DNA from: Moniliella sp. 'wahieum'
Taxonomy: Eukaryota
DNA: 64,000 nt
NCBI GenBank assembly: GCA_003971905.1
Contig: RSEE01000044.1
Span: 186,001-250,000 of the forward strand
Direction: 5' to 3'
Shown here: one piece after another, positions 2,530-18,132 of the stretch
How the letters are laid out: each line of letters starts with the position of its first letter
How positions within the stretch are numbered: the stretch's first letter is position 1
Made by a program: the position numbers and the translations under genes
Notes under the pieces: generated by a model
Told to the model about the DNA's origin: nothing
The model's database searches: none
The model's input: the letters and a program-made list of their open reading frames with translations, nothing else

Positions 2530-2954
2530 ATCCAATCCTGTTTCGACCCTAAAGTTGGCGTGTGTAGGCCCCATTTTCTTTTCTCGCCGGCATCATTTAA
2601 GTTGAAGAGGTGGCAACGGGCGAACACTGGCGCTGTGCGGTGCACGGGCCGACACGCTCGGACACTGCCCCCGCACTGCTCCGTTTTTTTTTTGGGCCGA
2701 GTCTCCGTCACGCAGCGGCGATACATGCGGCTGGGGGCGCACACTGGCGCCGTGCCGGCTCCCCGGTCAATTCCGCCCGGCCCTGGCCGATGCGTCGGAT
2801 TTTTTTTCGTGTAATAAAAGCGGCCGATGTGCGGCCGAGGCGTGCGTCCTTTCCCTTCTCTTTCCTGGTAGGACACTTGGCCTGCCAGGAAGGTTGCTGC
2901 CGCCCCCACCAAACTCCCCTTCGTCCCCACCACCACCCTTGCTCCTCTTCTGCC

Positions 2955-5900
2955 ATGAGCACCGCCACTCCTGCCGCTGCCGCTGCTGCCGCCCCGGCCC
3001 CTGCCACGGCGCCGCGCCAGCAACTGCAACGGCAACCGTTCTGGCACCGGCGCCCGTCAGCGCGGGCCCTGCCCCGCCTGCCACGCGCCCGCCCCCCTAC
3101 GCCGCCCATGCGACCGATGCGGGCGATATGGTCCTGGAGCTTGCCGACGGCACTGCCTTCCGCGGCTTCAGCTTCGGTGCACCCTCAAGAGCGTCAGTGG
3201 AGAGTGTGTCTTCCAGACGGGTATGTACTCACCTGCTCTTTCGGTCTCGGCCGCTTCGTGATCCACCCATGCTAACGCTTGCTGCTCCGTCAGGCATGGT
3301 TGGCTACGTCGAGTCCCTCACCGACCCGTCGTACGAAGGTCAGATCCTCGTGCTTACCTTCCCCCTCGTGGGGAACTATGGTGTCCCCTCGCGCAAAGAG
3401 GTCGATGCAGCGACGCAAAAGCTGCTTGCGCTGCCGTTTGAGTCGTCCCGCATTCACATTGCGGACTTGTCGTGGCGTATTACAGCGAAGACTTTCTCAC
3501 TTTTTGGCCGAGTCGAGCCTGGGCCAGTGGCTTGCTGAGAACGGTGTGCCTGCCATTTACGGCATTGACACGCGTGCCATGACCAAAAAGATTCGTGAAC
3601 GGGGGTCGATGTTGGGCAAGTTGTTGGCTCGGCAGAACTTTTCGTCCTCTCCCAAGGATCCGCTGCGTGCCCTCAAGGCCGCCGCCGCCGCCGACTCGCC
3701 TGCGTTGACGCCTGCTACCAAGCCTGTGACTGGCCTCGCTGGTGACGCTGATGCTCTTTGGCGCGTCGAGTTTGAGCAAATCCCCTTTGCTGACAACAAC
3801 GCCACCAATCTGGTCGCCAAGGTGTCGCTCACCAAGCCAGAAGTTTTCACCTTGGCTACCACTGCGACGAATGACGCCAAAGGGACCGCTACCAGCCAGC
3901 TTTGCACCCCTCTGGTCGCCCGCTTCGGATTATTGCTATTGACGTGGGCATGAAGCGCAACCAGATCCGTGCTTCACCTCTCGCGGGTTGAGCTCAAGGT
4001 GGTGCCGTGGGACTATGATGTGACGACAGAGGAGACTGAGCCCTTTGATGGCGTCTTTATCTCGAATGGTCCTGGTGATCCCACCATGTGTGGTCCGACG
4101 ATCAAGACGATTGAAAAGCTACTCGCCCGGCAAGGCGATGCGGTGGTGCCCATCTTTGGTATCTGCCTTGGCCACCAGCTTCTTTCGCTTGCTGCCGGTG
4201 CTAAGACGGAGAAGATGAAGTTTGGTAACCGTGGCGCCAACATCCCATGCACGGACGTGCTGAGCGGCCGCTGCTACATTACTTCCCAAAACCACGGTTA
4301 CGCCGTTAACGTCGACTCGCTCCCTCATGGCTGGCACGAGCTCTTCCAAAACGCCAATGATGGTTCCAACGAGGGTATCTACTCGTCGCAGGGCCCCTTC
4401 TTCTCGGTCCAGTTCCACCCGGAATCGGCGCCTGGCCCGCGCGACACGGAGTTCCTGTTTGACGTGTTCATCCGTTCGGTGGTGGACTGTGCCGCGGTCA
4501 AGGCAGCTGCCACCTCCCCTGCTCCGGCCTTGCCTCCAGTCCAATTCGTTGGGGGCAAGAAGGCAGACAACGAGGCGGCGCACCCGCGGGTGAATGTGCG
4601 CAAGGTCCTTGTGCTTGGGTCGGGTGGTCTGTCGATTGGTCAGGCTGGCGAATTTGACTACTCGGGCAGTCAGGCGATCAAGGCGTTCAAGGAGGAAGGC
4701 ATCTACACTGTGCTCATCAACCCCAACATTGCCACCATCCAAACGAGCGCCGGCTTGGCGGATAAGGTTACTTCGTTCCTGTCACCCCCGAGTTTGTCCT
4801 GAAGGTCATCAAGCACGAACGGCCCGACGGCATTGCCGTCACGTTTGGTGGCCAGACGGCGCTCAATGTCGGTATTGCCATTAAGGAGGAGCTTACTGCT
4901 TTGGGTGTCACAATTCTTGGTACTCCGATCGACACTATCATCACTACGGAAGACCGCGACCTGTTCGCCAAGGCCCTGGCCGAAATCAACGAAAAGGTCG
5001 CACCCTCGGCCTCGGCTACGACGTGGGAAGAAGCACTGGCGGCTTCCAAGCAGATTGGCTTCCCGGTGATTGTCCGTGCGGCCTTTGCCCTTGGGGGTTG
5101 GGCAGTGGATTTGCTTCGAACGTGGATGAACTTCAGAAGCTCTGCACGGCCGCTTTTGCCAACTCCCCGCAAGTGCTGGTGGAGAAGTCTATGCGCGGGT
5201 GGAAAGAGGTCGAGTACGAAGTGGTTCGCGACGCGCAGGACAACTGCATCACCGTTTGTAACATGGAAAACTTTGACCCGCTCGGCATCCACACTGGTGA
5301 CTCGATCGTTATTGCCCCCAGTCAGACACTGTCTGATGAGGATTACAACATGCTCCGCACCACCGCTGTCAATGTCATTCGCCACTGGGTGTGGTGGGTG
5401 AGTGCAACATCCAGTACGCGCTCAACCCGCACAGCAAGAGTACTGCATTATCGAGGTTAACGCCCGTCTGTCGCGTTCGTCGGCACTGGCGTCCAAGGCT
5501 ACGGTACCCGCTTGCCTTTATCGCTGCCAAGTTGGGTCTCAACATTCCTCTTAACAGATTCGCAATTCAGTGACCCAAGAAACATCGGCGTGCTTTGAGC
5601 CGTCACTCGACTATGTTGTCTGCAAGTTCCCTCGCTGGGATCTGCGGAAATTTGTTCGCGTCTCGTCCACTCTGGGCTCTTCAATGAAGTCTGTTGGTGA
5701 GGTCATGTCCATTGGCCGTACTTTCGAAGAGGCAATCCAGCGGGCCATTCGCTCGATCGACCCGTCCTTCCCTGGCTTTGCTACCGTACGTTTCCTGAGA
5801 CTAACACCCTTTTGCTTCATGTTATTATTGTAGGCTCAATTACTGACATTCCCTACCCTATACCCAGAACGACTTTGTCAAGGATGATGAGATTGATCAA

Positions 5901-8900
5901 GAGCTTACCGTGCCGACGGACCGCCGCATCTTTGCTATTGCCAATGCTCTTGGCAAGGGCTACTCGGTCGACAAGATCCACGACGCAACCTCGATTGACC
6001 GTTGGTTCCTCCGCAAGCTCGAGCGCATTACCAAGGCTGCCAATTGGTTCTCGAAGCAGACGCTGTCGCAGTTGAGCGCCGATCAGCTGCGGGCCGGTAA
6101 ACAGCTCGGCTTTTGACAAACTGCTGGCCAAGTGCATGGGCAGCACTGAACTTGCTGTCCGTCGCGTTCGTAAGGAGACGGGGATCATGCCTTTCGTCAA
6201 ACAGATTGATACGGTTGCCGCCGAGTTCCCAGCCTACACCAACTACCTTACACCACCTACCACGCCACTGAGCATGATGTGGACTTCAACGACAAGGGTG
6301 TCATTGTGCTTGGCTCGGGCGTGTACCGTATCGGTTCGAGTGTCGAGTTTGACTGGTGTGCTGTGCGTGCGTGCGCACCCTTCGCTCTCGGGGTACAAGA
6401 CGGTCATGATCAACTACAACCCTGAAACGGTGTCACGGACTATGACGAGGCGGACCGCTTGTACTTTGACGAGATCAGTCTGGAGACGGTTTTGGACATC
6501 TATGACCTTGAGCAGTCAAGCGGCGTGATCATCTCGATGGGTGGAGGTACCCAACAACATTGCTCTTCCCCTGCACCGCCAAGACGTCAAGGTGCTCGGT
6601 ACGTCGCCGGAGAACATTGACATGGCCGAGAACCGGTACAAATTCTCCGGATGCTTGACAAAATTGGTGTGGACCAGCCCATGTGGAAGGAACTCACGTC
6701 GTACGATGACGCCTATTCGGCTTGTGAGCGCTTTGGCTACCCCGTTTTGGTGCGCCCGTCGTATGTCCTGTCGGGGGCTGCGATGAACGTGGTTTACTCT
6801 TCGGATGACCTTTCCTCCTACCTCTCCCAGGCCGCTGCCGTTAACCGTGAACACCCGGTTGTCATTTCCAAGTACCTTGAGGGCGCCAAGGAGATTGAGA
6901 TGGACGCTGTCGCCCGCGATGGCAAGCTGGTGATGCACTACATTCGGAGCACGTCGAGAATGCCGGTGTGCACTCTGGTGACGCTACCCTCATCTCCCTC
7001 CGCAGGATCTGGACCCTGAGACGGTGCGCCGGATCACCGCCGCGACGGCCAAGATCGCCGAATCGCTCCATGTTACGGGTCCGTTCAACATCCAGTTCAT
7101 TGCCAAGAACAACGAGATCAAGGTGATCGAGTGCAACGTCCGTGCTGCGCTCCTTCCCCTTCGTCTCGAAGGTAACGGGCGTGGACGCGATTGAGATGGC
7201 CCGAGGTGATGCTGGGCCTGCCCATTGAGCCGTACCCCAAGATGACGTTGCCGAAAGACTACGTTGGTGTCAAGGTTCCGCAGTTTTCGTTCAGTCGGCT
7301 GGCTGGCGCTGATCCGATTCTGGGTGTGGAGATGGCCTCGACGGGTGAAGTGGCCTGCTTCGGTCACGACAAGTACGAGGCGTACCTGAAGGGCATGGTC
7401 GCATCTGGCCTTAAGCTGCCAACGAAGAATGTCCTCCTGTCGGTTGGGTCGTTCAGCGAGAAGCAGGAGCTGGTTCAATCTGTACGGACGCTGCACCAGT
7501 TGGGCTACACTCTCTACGGCTCGAGCGGTACTGCAGACTTCTATTCTGAGCAAGGCATCCCAATCATTCAGCTGGAGGCCCTGCCTGAGGATGAGGACTG
7601 GAAGGGAGACGACAATAAGATGTCCAGCTACTCGTTGCTCTCGCACTTGTCGCAAGGTGTCTCGTCTCTCTTCATTTCGCTCCCGAGTAAGAACAAGTAC
7701 CGCCGTCCCCCTACGTTCACTTCGATTGGTTACAAGGCCCGTCGTCTGGCGATTGACCGCTCTATTCCGCTCATCACTAATGTCAAGAACGCCAAGCTCT
7801 ACATTGAAGCTCTGGCGCGCTACCGCCGTGCTGGCTCTGACTTCTCCATCTCGAGCATCGACTTTAAGACTCGCACCAGACCCACACCTTCCCCGGTCTG
7901 TTCAACGTTGGCGCCTTCCTGCCTAACATTGCCGACCCGACAGTGGGCGCTCGCGACCTGGCTGAGTTGACCAAGGCTTCGCTTGCCGCTGGGTTCACCA
8001 CCGTCCACCTCTCGCCTCTGGGGACTACCAGCGTGGTCCGAGACGAACACACGCTCTCGATCGTCGAGGGCAAGTTGGCCGGAGCGGCTTATTGCGATGT
8101 GTCGTTGGCGCTTGCCGTGCCCCGACGACTCAGCCGGACGAAGTGGCTGCCCTGTCGGAGCGTAGCCGCACTCTCTGCGTAGTACCTCCTACCCGAACGG
8201 GGAGACCGTTCCTCTTGCTACGGCGGCAGCCAATGCCTCTGAGTGGCCTGCGGACCGCCTGCTGGTGACAAGCACCAAGGGCAACGACCTGGCCTCCGTT
8301 CTTCTCTTGGCCAGCCTGCAGCAGCGTGCCATTCACGTCACTGGTCTGACTGATGCGGCCGACCTGAGCCTCATCACCCTTGCCAAGGCTAAGGGGCTCA
8401 AGGTCTCGGTGGATGTGCCGATCTACGCTTTGTTCTTCAACCGTGGTACCTACCCTGAGGCGACCGTCCTTCCGACCGAGGCGGATCAAGCTGCACTATG
8501 GGAGAACCTGGCGAACATTGACGTGCTCACGGTGGGAAGCTTGCCTACATGATGGGTGTTCAGCTTGGCCACTCTGTCTCGGCTGCTTCGGGTATCGTGG
8601 AGAGTATGCATCTCCTTCTCGATGCAGTCAACGAGAAGCGCCTGCAACTGGAGGACATTTACGACAAGCTCTTCAAGGCCCCGTGAGATCTTTGGCTTCA
8701 TCGCCCCGCCCGATGCGGAAGTGCAGGTGGATGTCGACCGCGCCGCCCCGCGTCCCACTGGCACGATTTGGTCGCCGCTGGCGACGCGCACGACTGTTGG
8801 CGCGGTTTCGCGTGTGGTGAGCAAAGGCAAGGCCGTCTTTGTTGATGGCGAGAGCGTGTCGCGTGGCCCTGTGGGCCAAAACGTGTCGACCTCGTTTGGG

Positions 8901-9976
8901 GTGTCCAAGGCTACGCGCCACCTTCGTCGGGTGTCTGTGGCGGAGAGCGAGATGCCAATGTCGCCTGTGATGGATACGACAAGCGAGTTGGTGCGGGTGA
9001 GTGCTCCGACTCCGGCCCGCGAGCTGAGCCCATCTTCGGCCTTGCAGCTGGCGCACGCCTCCTTCAACCGTCGCCACATGCTCTCGGTGAAGCATTTACC
9101 CGTGATGATCTCCACGCCCTCTTCTCGGTTGCCCAGGAGATTCGCATGGGTGTGGAGCGGAATGGGATGCTCAAGATTCTGCGCAACCGCGTGCTCTGCA
9201 CTCTTTTCTACGAGGAATCCACTCGCACCTCCTCTTCCTTTGAGGCGGCCATGTACCGTCTCGGTGGTCAAGTGCTCCCGGTCAAGAGTCAAACCTCGTC
9301 GGTGGCCAAGGGCGAGACGTTGGAGGACACGGTGCGCACGCTTGGTTCCTACGGACGCGATTGTCATGCGCCACCCTGCGGTGGGTTCGGCTCAGAAGGC
9401 AGCGCGGGCCTCGCCGGTGCCCATCATTAATGCTGGCGACGGCATTGGAGAGCACCCAACCCAGGCATTGCTCGACGTCTTTACCATCCGCGAGGAGCTG
9501 GGTACGGTCAGCGGACTGACGGTCACGTTGCTGGGTGACCTCAAGAATGGTCGCACAACGCACAGCTTGGTGCGCCTTTTGGCGCTGTACGGTGTGACGC
9601 TCAACTACGTTTCGCCTGCGGCGCTGGCCATGCCGCGAGAGGTCAAGGCGGAGGCAGCGCGACGTGGGGTGGCTCAGTACGAGACGACGGATCTGCAGAG
9701 GTGCTGTCGACGACAGACGTGCTGTATGTCACGCGGGTGCAGAAGGAGCGCTTCAGCAACCCGTCCGAGTACGAGGCGGTCAAGGACGCCTACGTGGTCA
9801 ACAACGATTTCTGACCCGTGCCAAGAGAACATGATTGTTCTGCACCCGCTCCCCCGCGTCAACGAGTTGGCCGAGGAGGTGGACTTGTCGGAACACGCAG
9901 CCTACTGGCGCCAGGTCAAAACGGAGTCTGGGTCCGCTGTGCACTCTTGGCCCTTGTTATGCACAATGCCCAATAA
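2955..9976 (+). CDS. URA2: Multifunctional pyrimidine biosynthesis protein (GATase-CPSase-pseudo-DHOase-ATCase, CAD/Ura2)
   Basis: [123 protein letters not shown]. Introns 3221-3293 and 5786-5867. Many indels. Confidence 0.97.
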
Positions 9977-10435: not shown

Positions 10436-13400
10436 CTACAGACCTTCAGCAGTTGGGAGCGGTGGCGAGGATTCGGAAGGCAGCTGAGCACGAGTATCCT
10501 CTTGAATCTTGGGCGCATCGTCTGGCACGGTCAACGGATGGGCATCCTCATCGTCTTGGGCGCCTCCACGGGCTCGGCCGGTAGCTGGGCTTCCTCTTGG
10601 ATTTGGGCGCATCGCCTGGCTCGGCCAACGGCTGGACTTGCTCTTCCTTCTTGGGAGCCTCCACGGATTCCGCCGGCAGTTGGGCTTCCACTTGAGTTTT
10701 AGGCGCTTCGCCTGGCTCGGCCAACGGCTGGGCTTCCTCTTCCTTCTTGGGTTGCCTCTACGGGCTCGGCCGGTAGCTGGGCTTCCTCCTCCATCTTGGG
10801 CGCCTCTCGCTGCTCGGCCGGGGGAGGGGGCGACCCAGAGGGCTCCACGGCCGTCTCCGTAGCTGAAGGTGTTGCTGTGGCGGAAGCTTCAGAGGTAGGT
10901 CCAGTGGGCGGCTCGGGGCCTTCCGTCACAGAAGGAGACACATCTTTTGCCTCTCCCGACTCTGGTGGAGATGGAGCGTGCGGGGCATCCTTTGTGTCCG
11001 GGGCAATTACAGGCGCCTGAGCGAGCTCATTCGATGCAGGAGGCGCAGTGGCTGTAGGAGCAGGGGGGCGTGGCTGGGGTAGCAGCCACGGTGGCCGGGT
11101 AGGCTTGTGAAGGTGGTTGGTCTGTCGAGCGACAAGGGCAGCGTACTCTTCCCTTCGTGGACCATTCCTGTTGTCGGTGGATCATGCCCTGAACCCAAGC
11201 CGCCAACGCAGAACGAATGTCCTTGATGCGCTCGTGGTCAAAATTGGCCACCTCGCGTTTGCAAGTGCGGGAGATGGCATCAAATCGGTTGTGGCGGCGC
11301 ATGACCTCAGCCTCGCGCTCAACCAAGTCCCGACGATCCGCATGCGCCCCTTCGTCCCGCAGACGATCGTGCTTGGCCACCACCTTGCTTAACTCGTCAG
11401 CGGCCCTGCGCCACGCGATCCACGCATCCTCGCGCGTCTGGAATGCTTTCCGCACACTGCCCACCATCCGCTCGTACTCGTACACGATCGAGCCAAGGTC
11501 ATGGACATCCGCTTCAGCTTGCACCTCCCCACATCGCGCGGCCAGGGCTGTAGTCTGCCCCACACCTGCGAAGCAGGTACAGGTTGCCCTCGATAACGAG
11601 CTGGTTGAGAGAGCGGAAAATTGCTTGGCCAGCTCCTGCTCGGCCTTGGCTCGGTGACGGCGCTCTTCGCTCAATGTTTGGACTGCCTTGAAGAGGGTAC
11701 GTAAGTGGGTCTCGAGACTGTCGAGGTACACACGTTGCTTGTCGAACCACTCATCCGTCTCGACAAAGGGGGCCGCCCGCCCCCGTAACACTCACTAAGC
11801 TCGATCCCCAGCCGAGATAGGTCCGTTGTTCTGGCGTGGGCACGGGACCCTTGACCATATCGCGGGCTCGTACATCCGCGGCAAAGTTGTCACTGGAGAG
11901 AAAAAGGGCAAAGTCATCGTCCGTTTGCAACTCTGCGTGATTGGCAATTTTATTGATGCACAGTTCCAACCCGACCCGACGAGCTTCCACCAACTCCGGG
12001 TTGAAACGGCCCAGCTTGACCTTCTCTGGGACAGGTGGAACAATCACGCCCGGGTGGTTGTGGACAAGCGCAGCGTGGAGCCAACGGAAATCACTGTACC
12101 GTCGCAGGACAGAGAAGTGCAGGGAACGGAACCGCTCCGAGGTGGTCCGTGTACGCATCGTGTAGACGGTGTGAGCCGACATGGGCGCTCCGACTGTCTG
12201 AGGATCGCCAACCTTGATCTCAAACCATGCCTTGGGAGGATGGCCATTGACACCAAGGGTGAGCGATTGCGCAACATGCACTTTTCCAGGTGCCACAGCT
12301 TCCGCCGAATGCTCCACCAGCGCCGGCTTGGGTCCAGGCACAGCACGTGCTGCAGAGGACGTGGGAGATGGAGCACCATACCGTTCTGAATCACTGTCCC
12401 CCCCACTTGTACGCTTACCAGTGGATCTCCGCGCAGCTAAAAGACTTCCCAGAGGCGCATCGTCCTTCGGGTCGTCCTCTTCATCGTGGATCTGGGGCTC
12501 AGCCAGGGCGATATTTCCGGAGGAGTGGGATGGGCAGCGAGAGAGTTGAAGGATGGGTCGGGCGAAAGGGCAGGGGCCTGCAAATCAGGGTGAACTGGGC
12601 CCTCGGGCTCTTCGAGTGGGGAAGGAGGTGCGGCTTCAGGGCCGGAACGTGCCAATGTTGATGCCTGAAGAGAAACTGACTGGTCCTCAGAAGCAGGCCC
12701 TTGTGCTGAACGAGTGCCGGTAATTGTGTCGCCCGTGTCAGAAGCATCGGTCTTTTGCTTTGTTTCATCATCCGCGGACGGTGAGCCAAGAGACGTATCC
12801 GAAACCTTATCCTCTCGTTGCTCTTGGTCGAGTACCTGGCCGGACTCACCATCTGCCTGAGCGTTCGCTTCAGGCAGGTTGGGGACATTGACTGGAGGGG
12901 GGTCACCTTCTGTTCTCCATTCTCCACATTGACGACCTCATTCTCAACGTTGCCTGTTCCTCCCCTTCTTTCTCCTTGCTCTCCACCGCGGCCTTTTCCT
13001 TTTGGCGCATCTCTTCAGCCTCGATCGCTTCCCTCTTCTGGCGCTCTTCGGCCTCTGCCTCTTCTTGCTTGCGCGCTCCTCTACCTCGGCTTCTTCCTGC
13101 TTGCGGCGCTCCTCAGCCTCGGCTTCCTCCTGTTTGCGCCGCTTTTCCGCCTCGGCCTCTTCTTGCTTGCGCCGCTCCTCAGCTTCAGCTGCTTCCTGTT
13201 TTCGGCGCTCCTCAGCTTCAGCCTCTTCCTGTTTCGGCGCTCCTCGGCAGCAGCAGCCTCGGCAGCTTCCCGCGCAACTCGCTCTTCTTCCAAGCGTTTT
13301 TGACGCTCTGCTTCTTCTGCCAGTGCTTGGCGGTGTGCTTCGGCAGCCTGTCTGCGCTCCTCGACGACTTGGGCTACATGCTGTTTTTCATGCTGCGCCA

Positions 13401-14649
13401 CCACAAAACGGAAACAGGGGTTAGACAAAAGGGCTGGTTCGGGCCAGAAGGATACGAACCTCGTACAAGTAATCGGCCCACCACGTCTCAAATTCGACAT
13501 AGTCGCTCGCCACACCCAGGCGGGAAGTCTCGCTAACATCAAGGCGAGCATTCAATGGCCTAGCGGTCGCAGCTAAGGGTCGGCGTCGTACAGGGGTTCG
13601 AGGTGCGCCGTGGAGGCTGCAGGTCCTTCCTCATCCTCTTCTTCTTTTTCTCCGCCCCTTCCTCACCTTGTTCCTCACGATTGGGGTGGTCCGGGTCGGA
13701 TTCGAGAGCAGACGTAGAAATAGGGGTGGGGGGGAGTTCGCGCCAGGCACGCGCGCGAGCCCCGTTCCACACACGAGCCAACACGATGGACATGATGTAC
13801 TTCGTCATGGCTTCTTGGGCACTAACGTGTACAATGGCTGGCAGAGTGGGCAGAGTGAGAAGCTGAACGATGGCTTTAGCCACGTCCTCAACACAGGTCG
13901 GGTATCGGGTCTGGTTGGCGTCCATCGCCTTGGAAACCTCTCCTTCGGGACGGGGGAGGCGGATGGCATTGAGGAGGATGCTTACCGCACTCTCCTCGGG
14001 CGTCTCGACCTTTCCATAGCTGCATAATCAAAAGAGTTAGCCTTCAGCGAGAACTAGATAGGTGGAGGGGAGGAGGGGAGACATACAGGATGGGCACTCG
14101 CACCACAACGGTCCGCCCTTCAGGCCCAGCCGATGCGACGGCTCGCTCGGCACGCGCCTTGCTGTGACCATAGGCGTTGAGGGGGTGGGTGGGGGCGAGG
14201 GAAGATAGGGCGGACTAGTGCCGTCAAAAACATAGTCGGTCGACATGTGAACGTGAATGGGCGGCCGCTCCTGGCTGGCGCACCAGCGGGCAATGGCGTG
14301 CGGGAGATGGACGTTGAGCGCGTCGGCAGCCGCAGGGTCGGCTTGGACGCGGTCGGGGCGGCGCTCGGCAGCACAGTTGACAATCGCGCGGGGAGCAAGC
14401 CGGTTCAGCAGCGCATCCAGATGCGGGAAGGTCCAGGCTGCGGGCGCGGCATCGGAGCCGCCCGGGACAGGGGCGGGGGTCGCATCGGTCGCATCGGCGA
14501 GCAAGTCGACGGCCTCGAGGGGTGGGGGCAGGGCGGGCATGGGCAGTGCCCACGACGGGGACGCCAGCCTGGAGGAGGGACGCATGGACGGCGCGGCCCA
14601 AAAGGCCGGATGCGCCGAGGACAACGACGGGCCCAGGGGCGGCATCCAT
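10436..14649 (-). CDS. Apparent fusion protein: RmlD/MAT2B-like SDR domain + E/R/K helical repeat + acidic linker + Vps5/SNX1-type PX-BAR + 16-aa C-terminal repeats
   Basis: SDR part: VVVLGASGLLGRAV, NCAAERRPD, HMSTDYVFDG, NAYGHSK, RYPTCVEDVAKAI, ARPLNARLD..DYVEFETWWADYLYE. A phase-0 intron (13393-13459) leads into HEKQHVAQ..., then a low-complexity frame continues into the PX domain with no intergenic gap. Confidence 0.7.
10495..10812 (-). repeat. Coding tandem repeat, about 48-bp/16-aa unit x ~7, alternating two variants
   Basis: EAPKMEEEAQLPAEPV / EATQE.EEAQPLAEPG / EAPKTQVEAQLPAESV / EAPKKEEQVQPLAEPG / DAPKS.EEAQLPAEPV...; DNA motifs ggctcggccggtagctgggcttcc and cctggctcggccaacggctgg recur. 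Confidence 0.9.
11160..12230 (-). other. VPS5: PX + BAR (Vps5_C) domains of a retromer sorting nexin (part of the CDS at 10436-14649)
   Basis: WFEIKVGDPQTVG..HTVY..SVLRRYSDFRWLHAALVHNHPGVIVPPVPEKVKLGRF..VEARRVGLE (PX). FVETDEWFDKQRVYLDSLE..EYERMVGSVRKAF..FDAISRTCKREVANFDHERIKD (BAR). Confidence 0.92.
12984..13245 (-). repeat. Coding tandem repeat, 33-bp/11-aa unit (EERRKQEEAEA) x ~8
   Basis: Minus strand reads gaggagcgccgaaaacaggaagcagctgaagct and variants in tandem. Confidence 0.92.
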
Positions 14650-15316
14650 GGGCGCAGGAGGCGGTGGTGGGGGCGCGCGGCTGGGAGCCTGCACGGCCAC
14701 TCAGGACTCGGGACTGCCTGGCCGCCGCCCGGGCACCACACCGCCCCTGCAATGTTCAAATCCACGCCGCCGCCGCTTGCGTCTGGCCGCCGCCCACGTT
14801 GCACCGACTCGCGGCGCCACCCGCTGCGGCTGGCCGCTCACACATCGCATCACCGTAGCCAATGGGCACGGCGTGGGCGACGCGTGGAGCGCATGCACGC
14901 ATCCACACCCACTCCCATGTCCGCCGTCCCCACCCCCCCGCCCGTTCCCCGCCGGCCCCACCACCGCCTCGGCCTCCTCCTCGACCAGCCACCCAAGTCG
15001 GCGAGCTCCAGCCAATGCCAGCGGCACGGCCGCGTCCAGGACACCGCCCCCCTCCCCCGGCAGGCTGCAGCCCGGGGGCAGTGCCCAGCGGGGCATTGGC
15101 GAGCGGAATGCGCGTTCCGCCCCGCCCGCTCGGGGGCAGTGTGGCGCACGTGGTGCGGCGCGCGGGGCGGTAATTTTTGCCGATTTTTTGTTCAGCAACC
15201 TCCGCCATCATCATCATCGCCGCGAGCGGCTGCGACGGCGTCAAGGAGCAGCGAGCACCCGTCCCCGCCGTCCCCACCGTCCCACCCCACCGCGCACCCC
15301 CCGCGCACCCTCCCAC

Positions 15317-18132
15317 ATGGCCCAGCCCCTCTTGTCCCGCCCCGCCTGGCTCGCTGAGCTGGGCGACCGCGTCGCTGCCCATCCGCAGCTCTCGCCAGCC
15401 TCCCCCCCCACTTGGCCGACCTGCCCTTTGCCCCCTGTCCCTCCGACTCATCTACGCCCGCGCCTGCCGCACAGGACGCAGCCCCATCCGCACCGGGGCC
15501 TACCGCGTCGTGGTCCGAGCACCAGCGCTGGCTCCATTCTCAAACCCGCGACGCCGTCAAGGCTCTGTTTGATGCCGGCGTAGCCGGCGAGTCCGAGGCC
15601 CGCCTGCCATCCAGGCCTACCTCCTCACCGCTGCTGGCCACGCCGCACCGTATCACGCCACCCGTTCCACCTCTGCCAAGCGCAAACGGCCCCTCCACAC
15701 CGGGTCCGACTCCGAGTCCGACGCGGAGGCAGAGCCGGATCTGTTACCTCCGCCAACGCCGCTGGCGGAACTCTATGTCCCCCCGCCCCCTCCTGCCGAG
15801 TCGAGTGATACGGCCGATGCAGTCGAGGCTGCGCAACTATGGACCCAGCTCGAACTTCGTCACGCTGGCCTGGATGGGGTGTGCGAGCAAGCCGTGCAAA
15901 TGGACCAAACAGAAGATGATGACGAGGAAGCCGAGGAGCGCCTGGCCACTGCCGAAGCCGAGTCCGAGGAGGACGAGGAGGATGTGTCCGAAGAGGATGA
16001 TGACACCGATGAGGATGCATCGGACGAAGACTTGGCTCGCCTAGCAGCTATGACGGATGCCCAACTGAAGGCAATGGGTTTGCGCCGCGCGAGATTCTCA
16101 AGGTGCGCGCCGAGTTGCGCAAGCGTGGGTTTACCTTCGAGTCTTCAGGCGCACCCCACAATGCGGAAGAGGCTGAACTCGAGGACGCTGAGTTGGAGGA
16201 TATGTCTGACGACGAGCTTTATGGACCGGAAGAGGCAGACGAGGATTCCCAGGTGCATCGGACTTGTCGGATGACGAGGAGGCGAGCCGGGGTAACTATG
16301 GAGCCACTTCAAGACGAAGAGGAGCAGCTGAGAAGGAAGGATATGTTTGGTGTTGTGTCCGAATCCGACTCGGAATCCGACTCGGAAAATGAGTTGGAGC
16401 AGAGGGCATACAAGATACTGAGGTTTCCGCATCAGCCCCCTCGTCCAGCCTCGATGATGGATTTTTCAACTCTCTGCATTCCAGCGGGACACAATCGCGG
16501 CGAGGCCAAGGAGCCGGAGGTGGACGTGGACATGTTTGCAGACCCGTCTACCTGGGCTTCGGACGAAGAGGAGGAGGAGGGTACCGATCTCATGTACGAT
16601 CAATTCTTTGCTCCTCCGGCCGCGGCTGGACGATCGACCGGTCGTAAGTTGATTCGGTTGGTAAAGGCAAAACAGCCTTACCGCACCCAGTAGCGCCCCA
16701 TCAACCAGTGCCGGTCGCGGGAAAATTCGCTTTTCGGACAAGTTCAAGTGCGTCGGATCAAGCGAGCGCCAGGTATGCGCGAACCTCAAGACTTTTCGTT
16801 TCCTCCTGCTTCATTGCATCACTTTGACGTGGATCTTGATTCGGACGGAGATGATGAGGCGGAGAAGGAAGACGAGGAGGACGAAAATGACGAGGAGGAT
16901 GGGGACAGTGACCAAGAACAAGAAAAGGCCAGCTTCATTCTCTGGGCCCTTCCAATTTGGGCGAAGAAAAGATGAGTCTGGACGCGTCGGAGGACGACGA
17001 TGAAGAAGAAGAGGAAGAGGATGCGGACGACGGAGAAGAAGAGGAGGACGATGACGATGAAGGCTCTATAGAGGGCACGGCGCGTCGCGTGGCACAAGAT
17101 TTGTTTGCCGACCAAGATGAGGGGGATGATGTGGCGGATGGACTGTCCACACACGAAAAGCGGCAAGCGGCGCTTGAAGCCGAGATTGCTGCACTGGAGG
17201 CCGAAAATGTGGGGACAAAAGAGTGGGAATTGAAAGGTGAGGCATCGGGCTCGTCGCGGGCCAAGGATGCTGCCTTGGACATGGACATGGACTTTGTTCA
17301 TGCGCTCAAGTCGGCCCCTTTGGCGACGGCAGAAGAGAACGAAGAAGTGGAAGATTTGATCAAGCGCCGCATCCTTGCCGGGGAATTTGACGATGTGCCG
17401 CGCCGCTTGGCGCTAAGCGAGAAAGAGTTTTTGCCTTCCAAACTCGCCTCGCTCAGTGACCAAAAGTCCCAGCAGTCCCTTGCTGAGCTGTATGAGCAAG
17501 AGTACACTCAAGCGCAGACGGGCGGGGCGCCCACTTCCGAGGCAGACAGTAAGTTGGCCGCAGAGCATGCTCAGCTAACGGCTGGTGGAGAATGTGTTCC
17601 ACCAGCTCGACCGCCTCTCCAATGCCCACTACACTCCTCGTCTGCCGACGTGCACGCAGGGCAAATTACGGCTGCGCCCGCGGAGGCGTGGCGGCAATGG
17701 CATCCGAACAAGCGCTGCCTATGCTCGCTACGTCCAGCCAGGCCACACAACAAGCTCCGCGTGAAGTGTACGATCCTTCTTCCCGGACTGGGGTTGCGAC
17801 GGGTCCAGGGTCGCAGGGCGCACGCGTGTCACGTTCCTTTGCGGGAGCCCGGGACGAACTCACGTCCCAAGAAAAGAAGCAGGAACACACACGTCTCCGC
17901 CGGCTCAAGCGCGCTCGCAACCATGGCCCTTCTTCCGGTCCGACGCCGACGATCAAGCCCAAAGCGGGAGGGGCACGCGCAGAGAAGCAGGCGGCGCTGC
18001 AGGCGTTGGCGACGCAGCCCGGGGTGTCGCTGGTCGGAGCCGATGGTCAGCGGAACACCATGGTCAAGAAGCGTGGGCTTTGGAGCGGGCCAAAGCTCCC
18101 CACCAGCGCAGGGCGGGCAACTCAAGCTGTAA
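15317..18132 (+). CDS. MPP10: U3 snoRNP/SSU processome protein Mpp10
   Basis: Very acidic central region. LSTHEKRQAALEAEIAALEAENVGTKEWELKGEA, EDLIKRRILAGEFDDVPRR, LSDQKSQQSLAELYEQEY, LDRLSNAHYTP, ends QLKL*. Confidence 0.93.

Follow-up and report, generated by a model that had tools for sequence, protein, structure and literature searches.

Proteins of the Vps5 type are retromer sorting nexins, whose PX-BAR portion binds phosphatidylinositol 3-phosphate, pairs with Vps17 and tubulates endosomes; normally the N-terminus is plain and disordered. MAT2B-like proteins carry a full reductase active site, and to our knowledge no substrate of these proteins has been reported. Human MAT2B, according to PMC4107924, binds S-adenosylmethionine (SAM) synthetase (MAT) via its last residues, minimally V-F-H, the tail being inserted into the MAT dimer. 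We analyzed a 64,000-nucleotide stretch of Moniliella sp. 'wahieum' DNA (contig RSEE01000044.1, positions 186,001 to 250,000; hereafter the window) in which an original prediction, made from the letters alone, had proposed that the two families meet in one protein: an RmlD/MAT2B-like domain of the short-chain dehydrogenase/reductase (SDR) type fused to a Vps5 PX-BAR. The proposal is strongly supported: the locus is one gene, the same architecture recurs across Ustilaginomycotina, and the fusion is almost certainly real. As to what the protein does, we lean – with moderate confidence, from sequence and predicted structure – toward a working Vps5 that carries an active enzyme dependent on nicotinamide adenine dinucleotide phosphate (NADP(H)) on a flexible tether, without necessary control of one by the other.

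The taxonomic range of the fusion was surveyed with the BAR piece and the SDR of an orthologue as queries. Full-length fusions were found in 33 named taxa of Ustilaginomycotina (including 11 Malassezia), which we take to fall in three classes. The genera are Ustilago (U. maydis UMAG_05287), Sporisorium, Moesziomyces, Pseudozyma, Kalmanozyma, Melanopsichium, Testicularia, Tilletia, Tilletiaria, Ceraceosorus, Exobasidium, Parajaminaea, Sympodiomycopsis and Malassezia; SDR, PX and BAR are all present in 109 of the 306 proteins collected. Among the 120 matches listed, no named fungus outside Ustilaginomycotina has both halves, and a single record labelled Cichorium (a plant) clusters with Moesziomyces and is probably contamination. 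Free MAT2B-like homologues of ~300 amino acids (aa) occur in agarics, rusts, Rhodotorula, Cryptococcus, Mucoromycota and Zoopagomycota, and unfused Vps5 occurs in, for example, Rhizoctonia and Schizophyllum; the other fungi examined have both genes separate. A metagenome scan returned 80 loci (identity of 43% or less), none extending into the Vps5 part of the query. In four further models (P0089, P0090, P0095 and P0103) a MAT2B-like domain is joined to BAR-PH (a single model, from Rhodotorula mucilaginosa) or to PF10681 (clusters in two Wallemia species); these may be merged gene models.

The combination of RmlD_sub_bind, PX and Vps5, whose range the original prediction had proposed to check, already occurs in databases, in gene models from across Ustilaginomycotina. 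Each half belongs to a known family, and automatic annotations include the architecture under a name taken from the Vps5 half. A full-text search, with most subscription papers outside its reach, yielded no paper describing either the fusion or UMAG_05287; term searches found neither Vps5 nor RmlD mentioned in PMC6926304 and PMC4607519, nor are they mentioned in one supplement of PMC5389616.

FastTree analysis of 38 and 41 chosen rows, for SDR and PX-BAR respectively, places the fused SDRs in one clade and the fused PX-BARs in another (support of 100 for each; 99 for the SDR clade in a separate, quick IQ-TREE run), with the fused PX-BAR clade sister to unfused fungal Vps5. Since each domain forms a single fused clade, a single origin is likely: the fusion probably arose once. 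Within these trees the PX-BAR of the window organism groups with Tilletiaria (96) and its SDR, on a long branch, with Malassezia (99).

The gene in the window carries numerous frame breaks, and two database models (from Violaceomyces palustris and Tilletia maclaganii) are split, as would be seen if two adjacent genes had only seemingly been joined by an error-rich assembly. This is hardly credible given the evidence from relatives and from the genome itself. A second copy of the gene, on contig C32 and flanked by the same neighbors, aligns to the window with 3991 matches, 87 mismatches and 44 indel events (98% identical). The window shows five one-base frame breaks (~13235, 13075, 12951, 12900 and 12506) in the stretch from the junction intron to the PX domain, and the C32 copy restores the missing base at four of them. 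Merged, the two copies read in a single net frame from the start codon as far as the PX domain, apart from two short patches that are locally shifted. Frame-breaking indels between copies are rarer in the coil and linker (4.3/kb) than in the neighboring genes (9.0 and 14.0/kb), and single-nucleotide polymorphisms (SNPs) between copies fall on codon positions 1, 2 and 3 in the ratio 14/9/48 for the gene as a whole and 5/3/15 for the linker: the bias of linker SNPs toward third positions indicates that the linker is coding in the fusion frame. The frame breaks are best read as long-read errors. Beyond this genome, relatives have unbroken open reading frames (ORFs) and conserved linker motifs, and our searches of the genome recovered no further VPS5 or MAT2B-like gene.

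Those searches, for SDR, PX-BAR and dehydratase, score the best candidates only. On that basis the SDR was found at two fused loci and nowhere else, and a Vps5-type PX-BAR at the same two loci plus one decayed syntenic fragment on contig C57; the fused gene, in two near-identical copies, is shown to be the only intact VPS5 and the only MAT2B-like gene found. A second canonical VPS5, for which the original prediction had advised looking, did not emerge. The third copy (G000:C57:402000-411500, about 5550-6910 therein) is syntenic and 72-86% identical; deletions have removed its SDR and linker along with part of the PX-BAR, what remains is eroded, and it is probably a decayed homeologue. As a candidate canonical VPS5 it was rejected: SDR, linker and ~230 nucleotides (nt) of the PX-BAR are missing, and PX residues are eroded. 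VPS35 is present at five loci, as against only two intact VPS5 copies found, and MAT at about six; the five VPS35 and approximately six MAT loci suggest a hybrid, polyploid or multi-haplotype assembly.

The point at which the two halves join is marked by an intron (positions 13459-13393, minus strand; phase 0, GT..AG, with a CTAAC branch site) that lies immediately after WWADYLYE, as the original prediction had it, and six codons past the WW motif. In free homologues the chain stops a median of 8 residues past FxxWW (94 of 101), so that the junction intron, 6 residues past WW, sits at their natural end, which fits two adjacent genes fused by splicing. Judging by the protein ends of split ORF calls, the intron would occupy the same codon in Ustilaginaceae, Violaceomyces, one Tilletiaria-like and one Sympodiomycopsis-like sequence. 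ORF calls from Logan/ENA run unbroken through the junction in the U. maydis cluster (1249-1250 aa) and in the Malassezia clade (762-842 aa); because sequences of other species from these sources are split at the intron, we infer that the callers do not splice and that these lineages have lost it.

An intron in this position raises the prospect of a locus with two products, in which intron retention or cleavage of the linker yields mostly free SDR along with a minor or processed Vps5, the fusion serving mainly to share a promoter. Both the placement of the intron at the ancestral C-terminus and the read-through product fit such a scheme: 11 of 12 Ustilaginaceae-like ORF calls (P0148, P0155, P0164, P0166 and P0307-P0313) end in a conserved 8-residue tail, V[RC]xQxxxL-stop, which may represent a real short isoform or splice-signal constraint only. 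The 12 calls are, however, related rather than independent; the intron appears to be missing from the U. maydis cluster and from the proteins of the Malassezia clade, and the read-through of the two copies in the present genome differs in length (12 as against 27 residues). We therefore regard the two-product locus as rather doubtful. A peroxisomal signal in the read-through tail was considered and rejected. The C-terminal consensus is [SAC][KRH]L, and the observed endings (DTL, SSL, TSL, ASL, STL, VAL and TAL) miss it.

The whole gene occupies positions 14649-10436 on the minus strand, with the ATG at 14649, the stop codon at 10438-10436 and two introns; the order is SDR, charged helical repeat, linker, PX, Vps5 BAR and tail, and the motifs named in the original prediction were located on this strand as described. 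Exon 1 (14087..14649) encodes the N-terminal portion of a MAT2B-like extended SDR, with GASGLLG (~14616-14596), AAERRPD, STDYVFDG (~14243-14220) and YGHSK (~14172-14158), and is interrupted by frame breaks at ~14520 and ~14198. Intron 1 (14020..14086; phase 2, GTATGT...GCAG, CTAAC branch site), which does not figure in the original prediction, falls within the SDR, at a site across which homologues read VPxLYG uninterrupted. Exon 2 (13460..14019; frame breaks ~13651 and ~13580) supplies the C-terminal portion, with ESAV, RYPT, MTKY, an acidic insertion and, at its end (13460), WWADYLYE. Pfam assigns RmlD_sub_bind/Epimerase matches to four pieces of the SDR. Beyond the junction intron (13393..13459) lies a Glu/Arg/Lys/Ala-rich helical repeat of EERRKQEEAEA units (12955..13392) that is also found in non-Malassezia orthologues, followed by a disordered linker (12240..12954) with the conserved motifs SPDPSFNSLAAHPTPP (~12565-12518), DDAPL (~12464-12450) and DSDSERYGAPSP (~12398-12363). 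The PX domain (11870..12239; LRRYSDFRWLH, PEK; PF00787, 82 bits, Pfam core 12131-11889) and the Vps5-type BAR domain (11120..11770; PF09325, 156 bits) come next; together they are orthologous to fungal Vps5 by tree, and the best sorting-nexin match of an orthologue is fungal Vps5 (PDB 6H7W, E 4.5e-56). The gene ends in a low-complexity Pro/Ala/Glu tail with repeats (10436..11119), within which a tandem repeat (window 10553-10800, minus strand) differs between copies by one unit of ~94 nt, the C32 copy having one unit fewer. On either side are a divergent MPP10 gene (~15200-18130, plus strand) and a convergent URA2-like carbamoyltransferase gene (~2600-9900, plus strand), both of which carry indel breaks of the same kind as the fused gene.

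Structure and similarity searches for the SDR were run on the 762-aa orthologue P0018. Its closest solved sequence is human MAT2B (E 1e-56), with RmlD far behind (4e-17): of the RmlD/MAT2B-like label given originally, the MAT2B part stands and RmlD proper does not. An AlphaFold2 model of P0018 contains a folded SDR at residues 1-305, whose best fold match is again MAT2B (TM 0.90, 1.4 Å, ~41% identity). Conservation of single residues was scored over 43 full-length rows, 11 of the 54 rows having been omitted as partial or N-terminally non-standard: R34, S108, T109, Y111, Y132 and K136 are invariant in all 43, and the glycine motif is present in 42. T109, Y132 and K136 make up what we take to be the Thr-Tyr-Lys catalytic triad of RmlD. 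The SDR of the window has the same NADP-binding glycine and active-site motifs as its orthologues. Mean identity among 24 fused proteins is 54.5% for the SDR, 63.6% for the PX and 44.9% for the BAR domain, and the invariant residues together with an SDR more conserved than the BAR indicate that the SDR is under strong constraint. The fused SDR has probably retained both NADP(H) binding and turnover of a substrate.

Which metabolism it might serve is a separate matter. Because human MAT2B provides the closest solved sequences and folds, and about six MAT loci are present in the genome, the fused domain might be thought to recruit or regulate SAM synthetase at endosomes. This we regard as very unlikely. 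Human MAT2B needs a free C-terminal V-F-H to bind MAT (PMC4107924); the fused domain has no free C-terminus, VFH is absent from the fusion, and none of the 101 free homologues ends in it. A link to SAM metabolism, one of those envisaged when the fusion was predicted, is weakened accordingly. Its counterpart, a link to rhamnose, is weakened as well: the genome has 12 PF16363 matches (28 candidates scored), and among those inspected no NDP-glucose 4,6-dehydratase was recognized, which leaves rhamnose synthesis unsupported. By motif, the inspected matches presumably resemble GalE, UDP-xylose synthase or other reductases. A reading frame resembling GalE (UDP-glucose 4-epimerase) and free of evident introns lies at C22:345056-348517. 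No link between MAT2B and rhamnose synthesis is drawn in the available portion of bioRxiv 2023.08.20.554039.

Between the two folded halves, the linker is free to vary in length. Linkers range from 55 to 477 residues among orthologues (nearly nine-fold), those of Malassezia being 55-157 aa. The AlphaFold2 model of P0018 has a pLDDT of 87.7, a pTM of 0.53 and a disordered linker, which fits two unlinked modules. NPF is found in 24 of 32 unfused Vps5 sequences as compared to 3 of 30 fused, and DP[FW] in 15 of 32 as compared to none of 30. DPL, the Vps29-binding motif of ascomycete Vps5 according to bioRxiv 2024.03.24.586500, is present in 2 of 30 fused linkers; the looser [DE]x?PL is present in 12 of 30, and the window has DDAPL. 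Specific to the fused clade are SLxARPTPP and an acidic-YGxx[ST]P motif: acidic-YG, mostly followed by xx[ST]P, is present in 53 of 54 fused rows, and the strict pattern in 26 of 30 fused and none of 32 unfused Vps5 sequences.

Such an exchange of motifs is what might be expected if the SDR were a regulator, which upon binding NADP(H) or a nucleotide sugar switches Vps5 or the assembly of retromer, acting either via the clade-specific motifs of the linker or through contact with a retromer subunit or cargo. The loss of the usual N-terminal motifs and the gain of new ones are consistent with such coupling, as is the fact that three classes retain the fusion, and that even the Malassezia orthologues, compact as they are, do so. 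On the other hand, the single-chain model has no fixed arrangement of domains, the linker varies freely in length, and Tilletia horrida has a free SDR paralogue. The last comprises four short models (P0314 and P0424-P0426) that are 70% identical and sister to the fused SDR of the same species and fall within the fused clade; they have the appearance of a free paralogue that arose from the fused gene, and the SDR domain can therefore stand alone. (These models are named 'vps5' in the database, though they have no Vps5 domain.) We consider the coupled regulator possible, though unlikely. Also on the unlikely side is its most far-reaching form, that in all Ustilaginomycotina a built-in NADP(H)- or nucleotide-sugar-binding domain controls the retromer sorting nexin, with acidic-YGxx[ST]P replacing the retromer-binding N-terminus; were this so, the fusion would suggest that the MAT2B family, the human protein included, has a substrate for catalysis and a role at endosomes that has gone unrecognized.

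We return to the tethered enzyme as our preferred reading. According to this reading, one gene gives one protein with two independently folding modules. The phase-0 intron would have linked the natural C-terminus of an upstream MAT2B-like gene to VPS5, whose former NPF/DPF-rich beginning would have been displaced by the fusion. As established for its family, the PX-BAR half would act as a retromer sorting nexin; the SDR half would be an active oxidoreductase dependent on NADP(H), whose ligand is probably a nucleotide-keto-sugar or something similar. A flexible tether of about 55-480 residues would hold the SDR, which would not have to exert any control over the coat; in lineages that still have the junction intron, free SDR could in addition be produced by retaining it.

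Several observations weigh against this reading. The fifth frame break, in a six-C run at ~12900, is common to the window and C32 copies, and could reflect an under-called homopolymer or, alternatively, an intron of 50 nt (12906-12857) whose donor is weak. The SDR of the window has a branch length of 1.05 (the median is 0.36). The NCBI model of V. palustris is a 323-aa SDR that ends inside the junction intron, and one model of T. maclaganii consists of the Vps5 half alone; both may be split annotations. Finally, a passive tether explains neither the conservation of acidic-YGxx[ST]P (53 of 54 fused, absent from 32 of 32 unfused) nor the absence of clearly seen re-splits in any lineage.

An entire fungal subphylum – including the smuts and bunts of crops and the Malassezia of skin – thus appears to carry a conserved enzyme on Vps5, together with a rewired retromer-binding region, and the fused architecture is a candidate molecular marker of Ustilaginomycotina. 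U. maydis is genetically tractable: UMAG_05287 allows a direct test of enzyme activity, endosomal relevance and the need for the covalent link.

Comparison with known systems defines what is particular to the fusion. With fungal Vps5 (PDB 6H7W) and human SNX1 it shares PX, BAR and a long disordered region before the PX domain; its N-terminus, however, is not wholly disordered, but capped by a folded SDR of 300 aa and a charged helix, and relative to fungal Vps5 it has lost NPF and DP[FW], mostly lacks DPL, and has gained acidic-YGxx[ST]P and SLxARPTPP. With human MAT2B and the free fungal MAT2B-like proteins (~300 aa) it shares the GxxGxxG NADP site, AAERRPD, ESAV, R[YF]PT and MTKY, whereas, in contrast to human MAT2B, the fused SDR has neither the VFH tail nor a free C-terminus and is covalently tied to a membrane-coat protein. 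The Pfam RmlD_sub_bind match and the Thr/Tyr/Lys residues are held in common with RmlD (dTDP-4-dehydrorhamnose reductase), from which the fused SDR is much more distant than from MAT2B (best E 4e-17; fold matches at 20-25% identity). The database models – UMAG_05287, the 'Vps5-domain-containing protein' of Tilletiaria anomala and 'vps5' of Malassezia – are identical in architecture, although named after the Vps5 half alone: the gene in the window is their orthologue.

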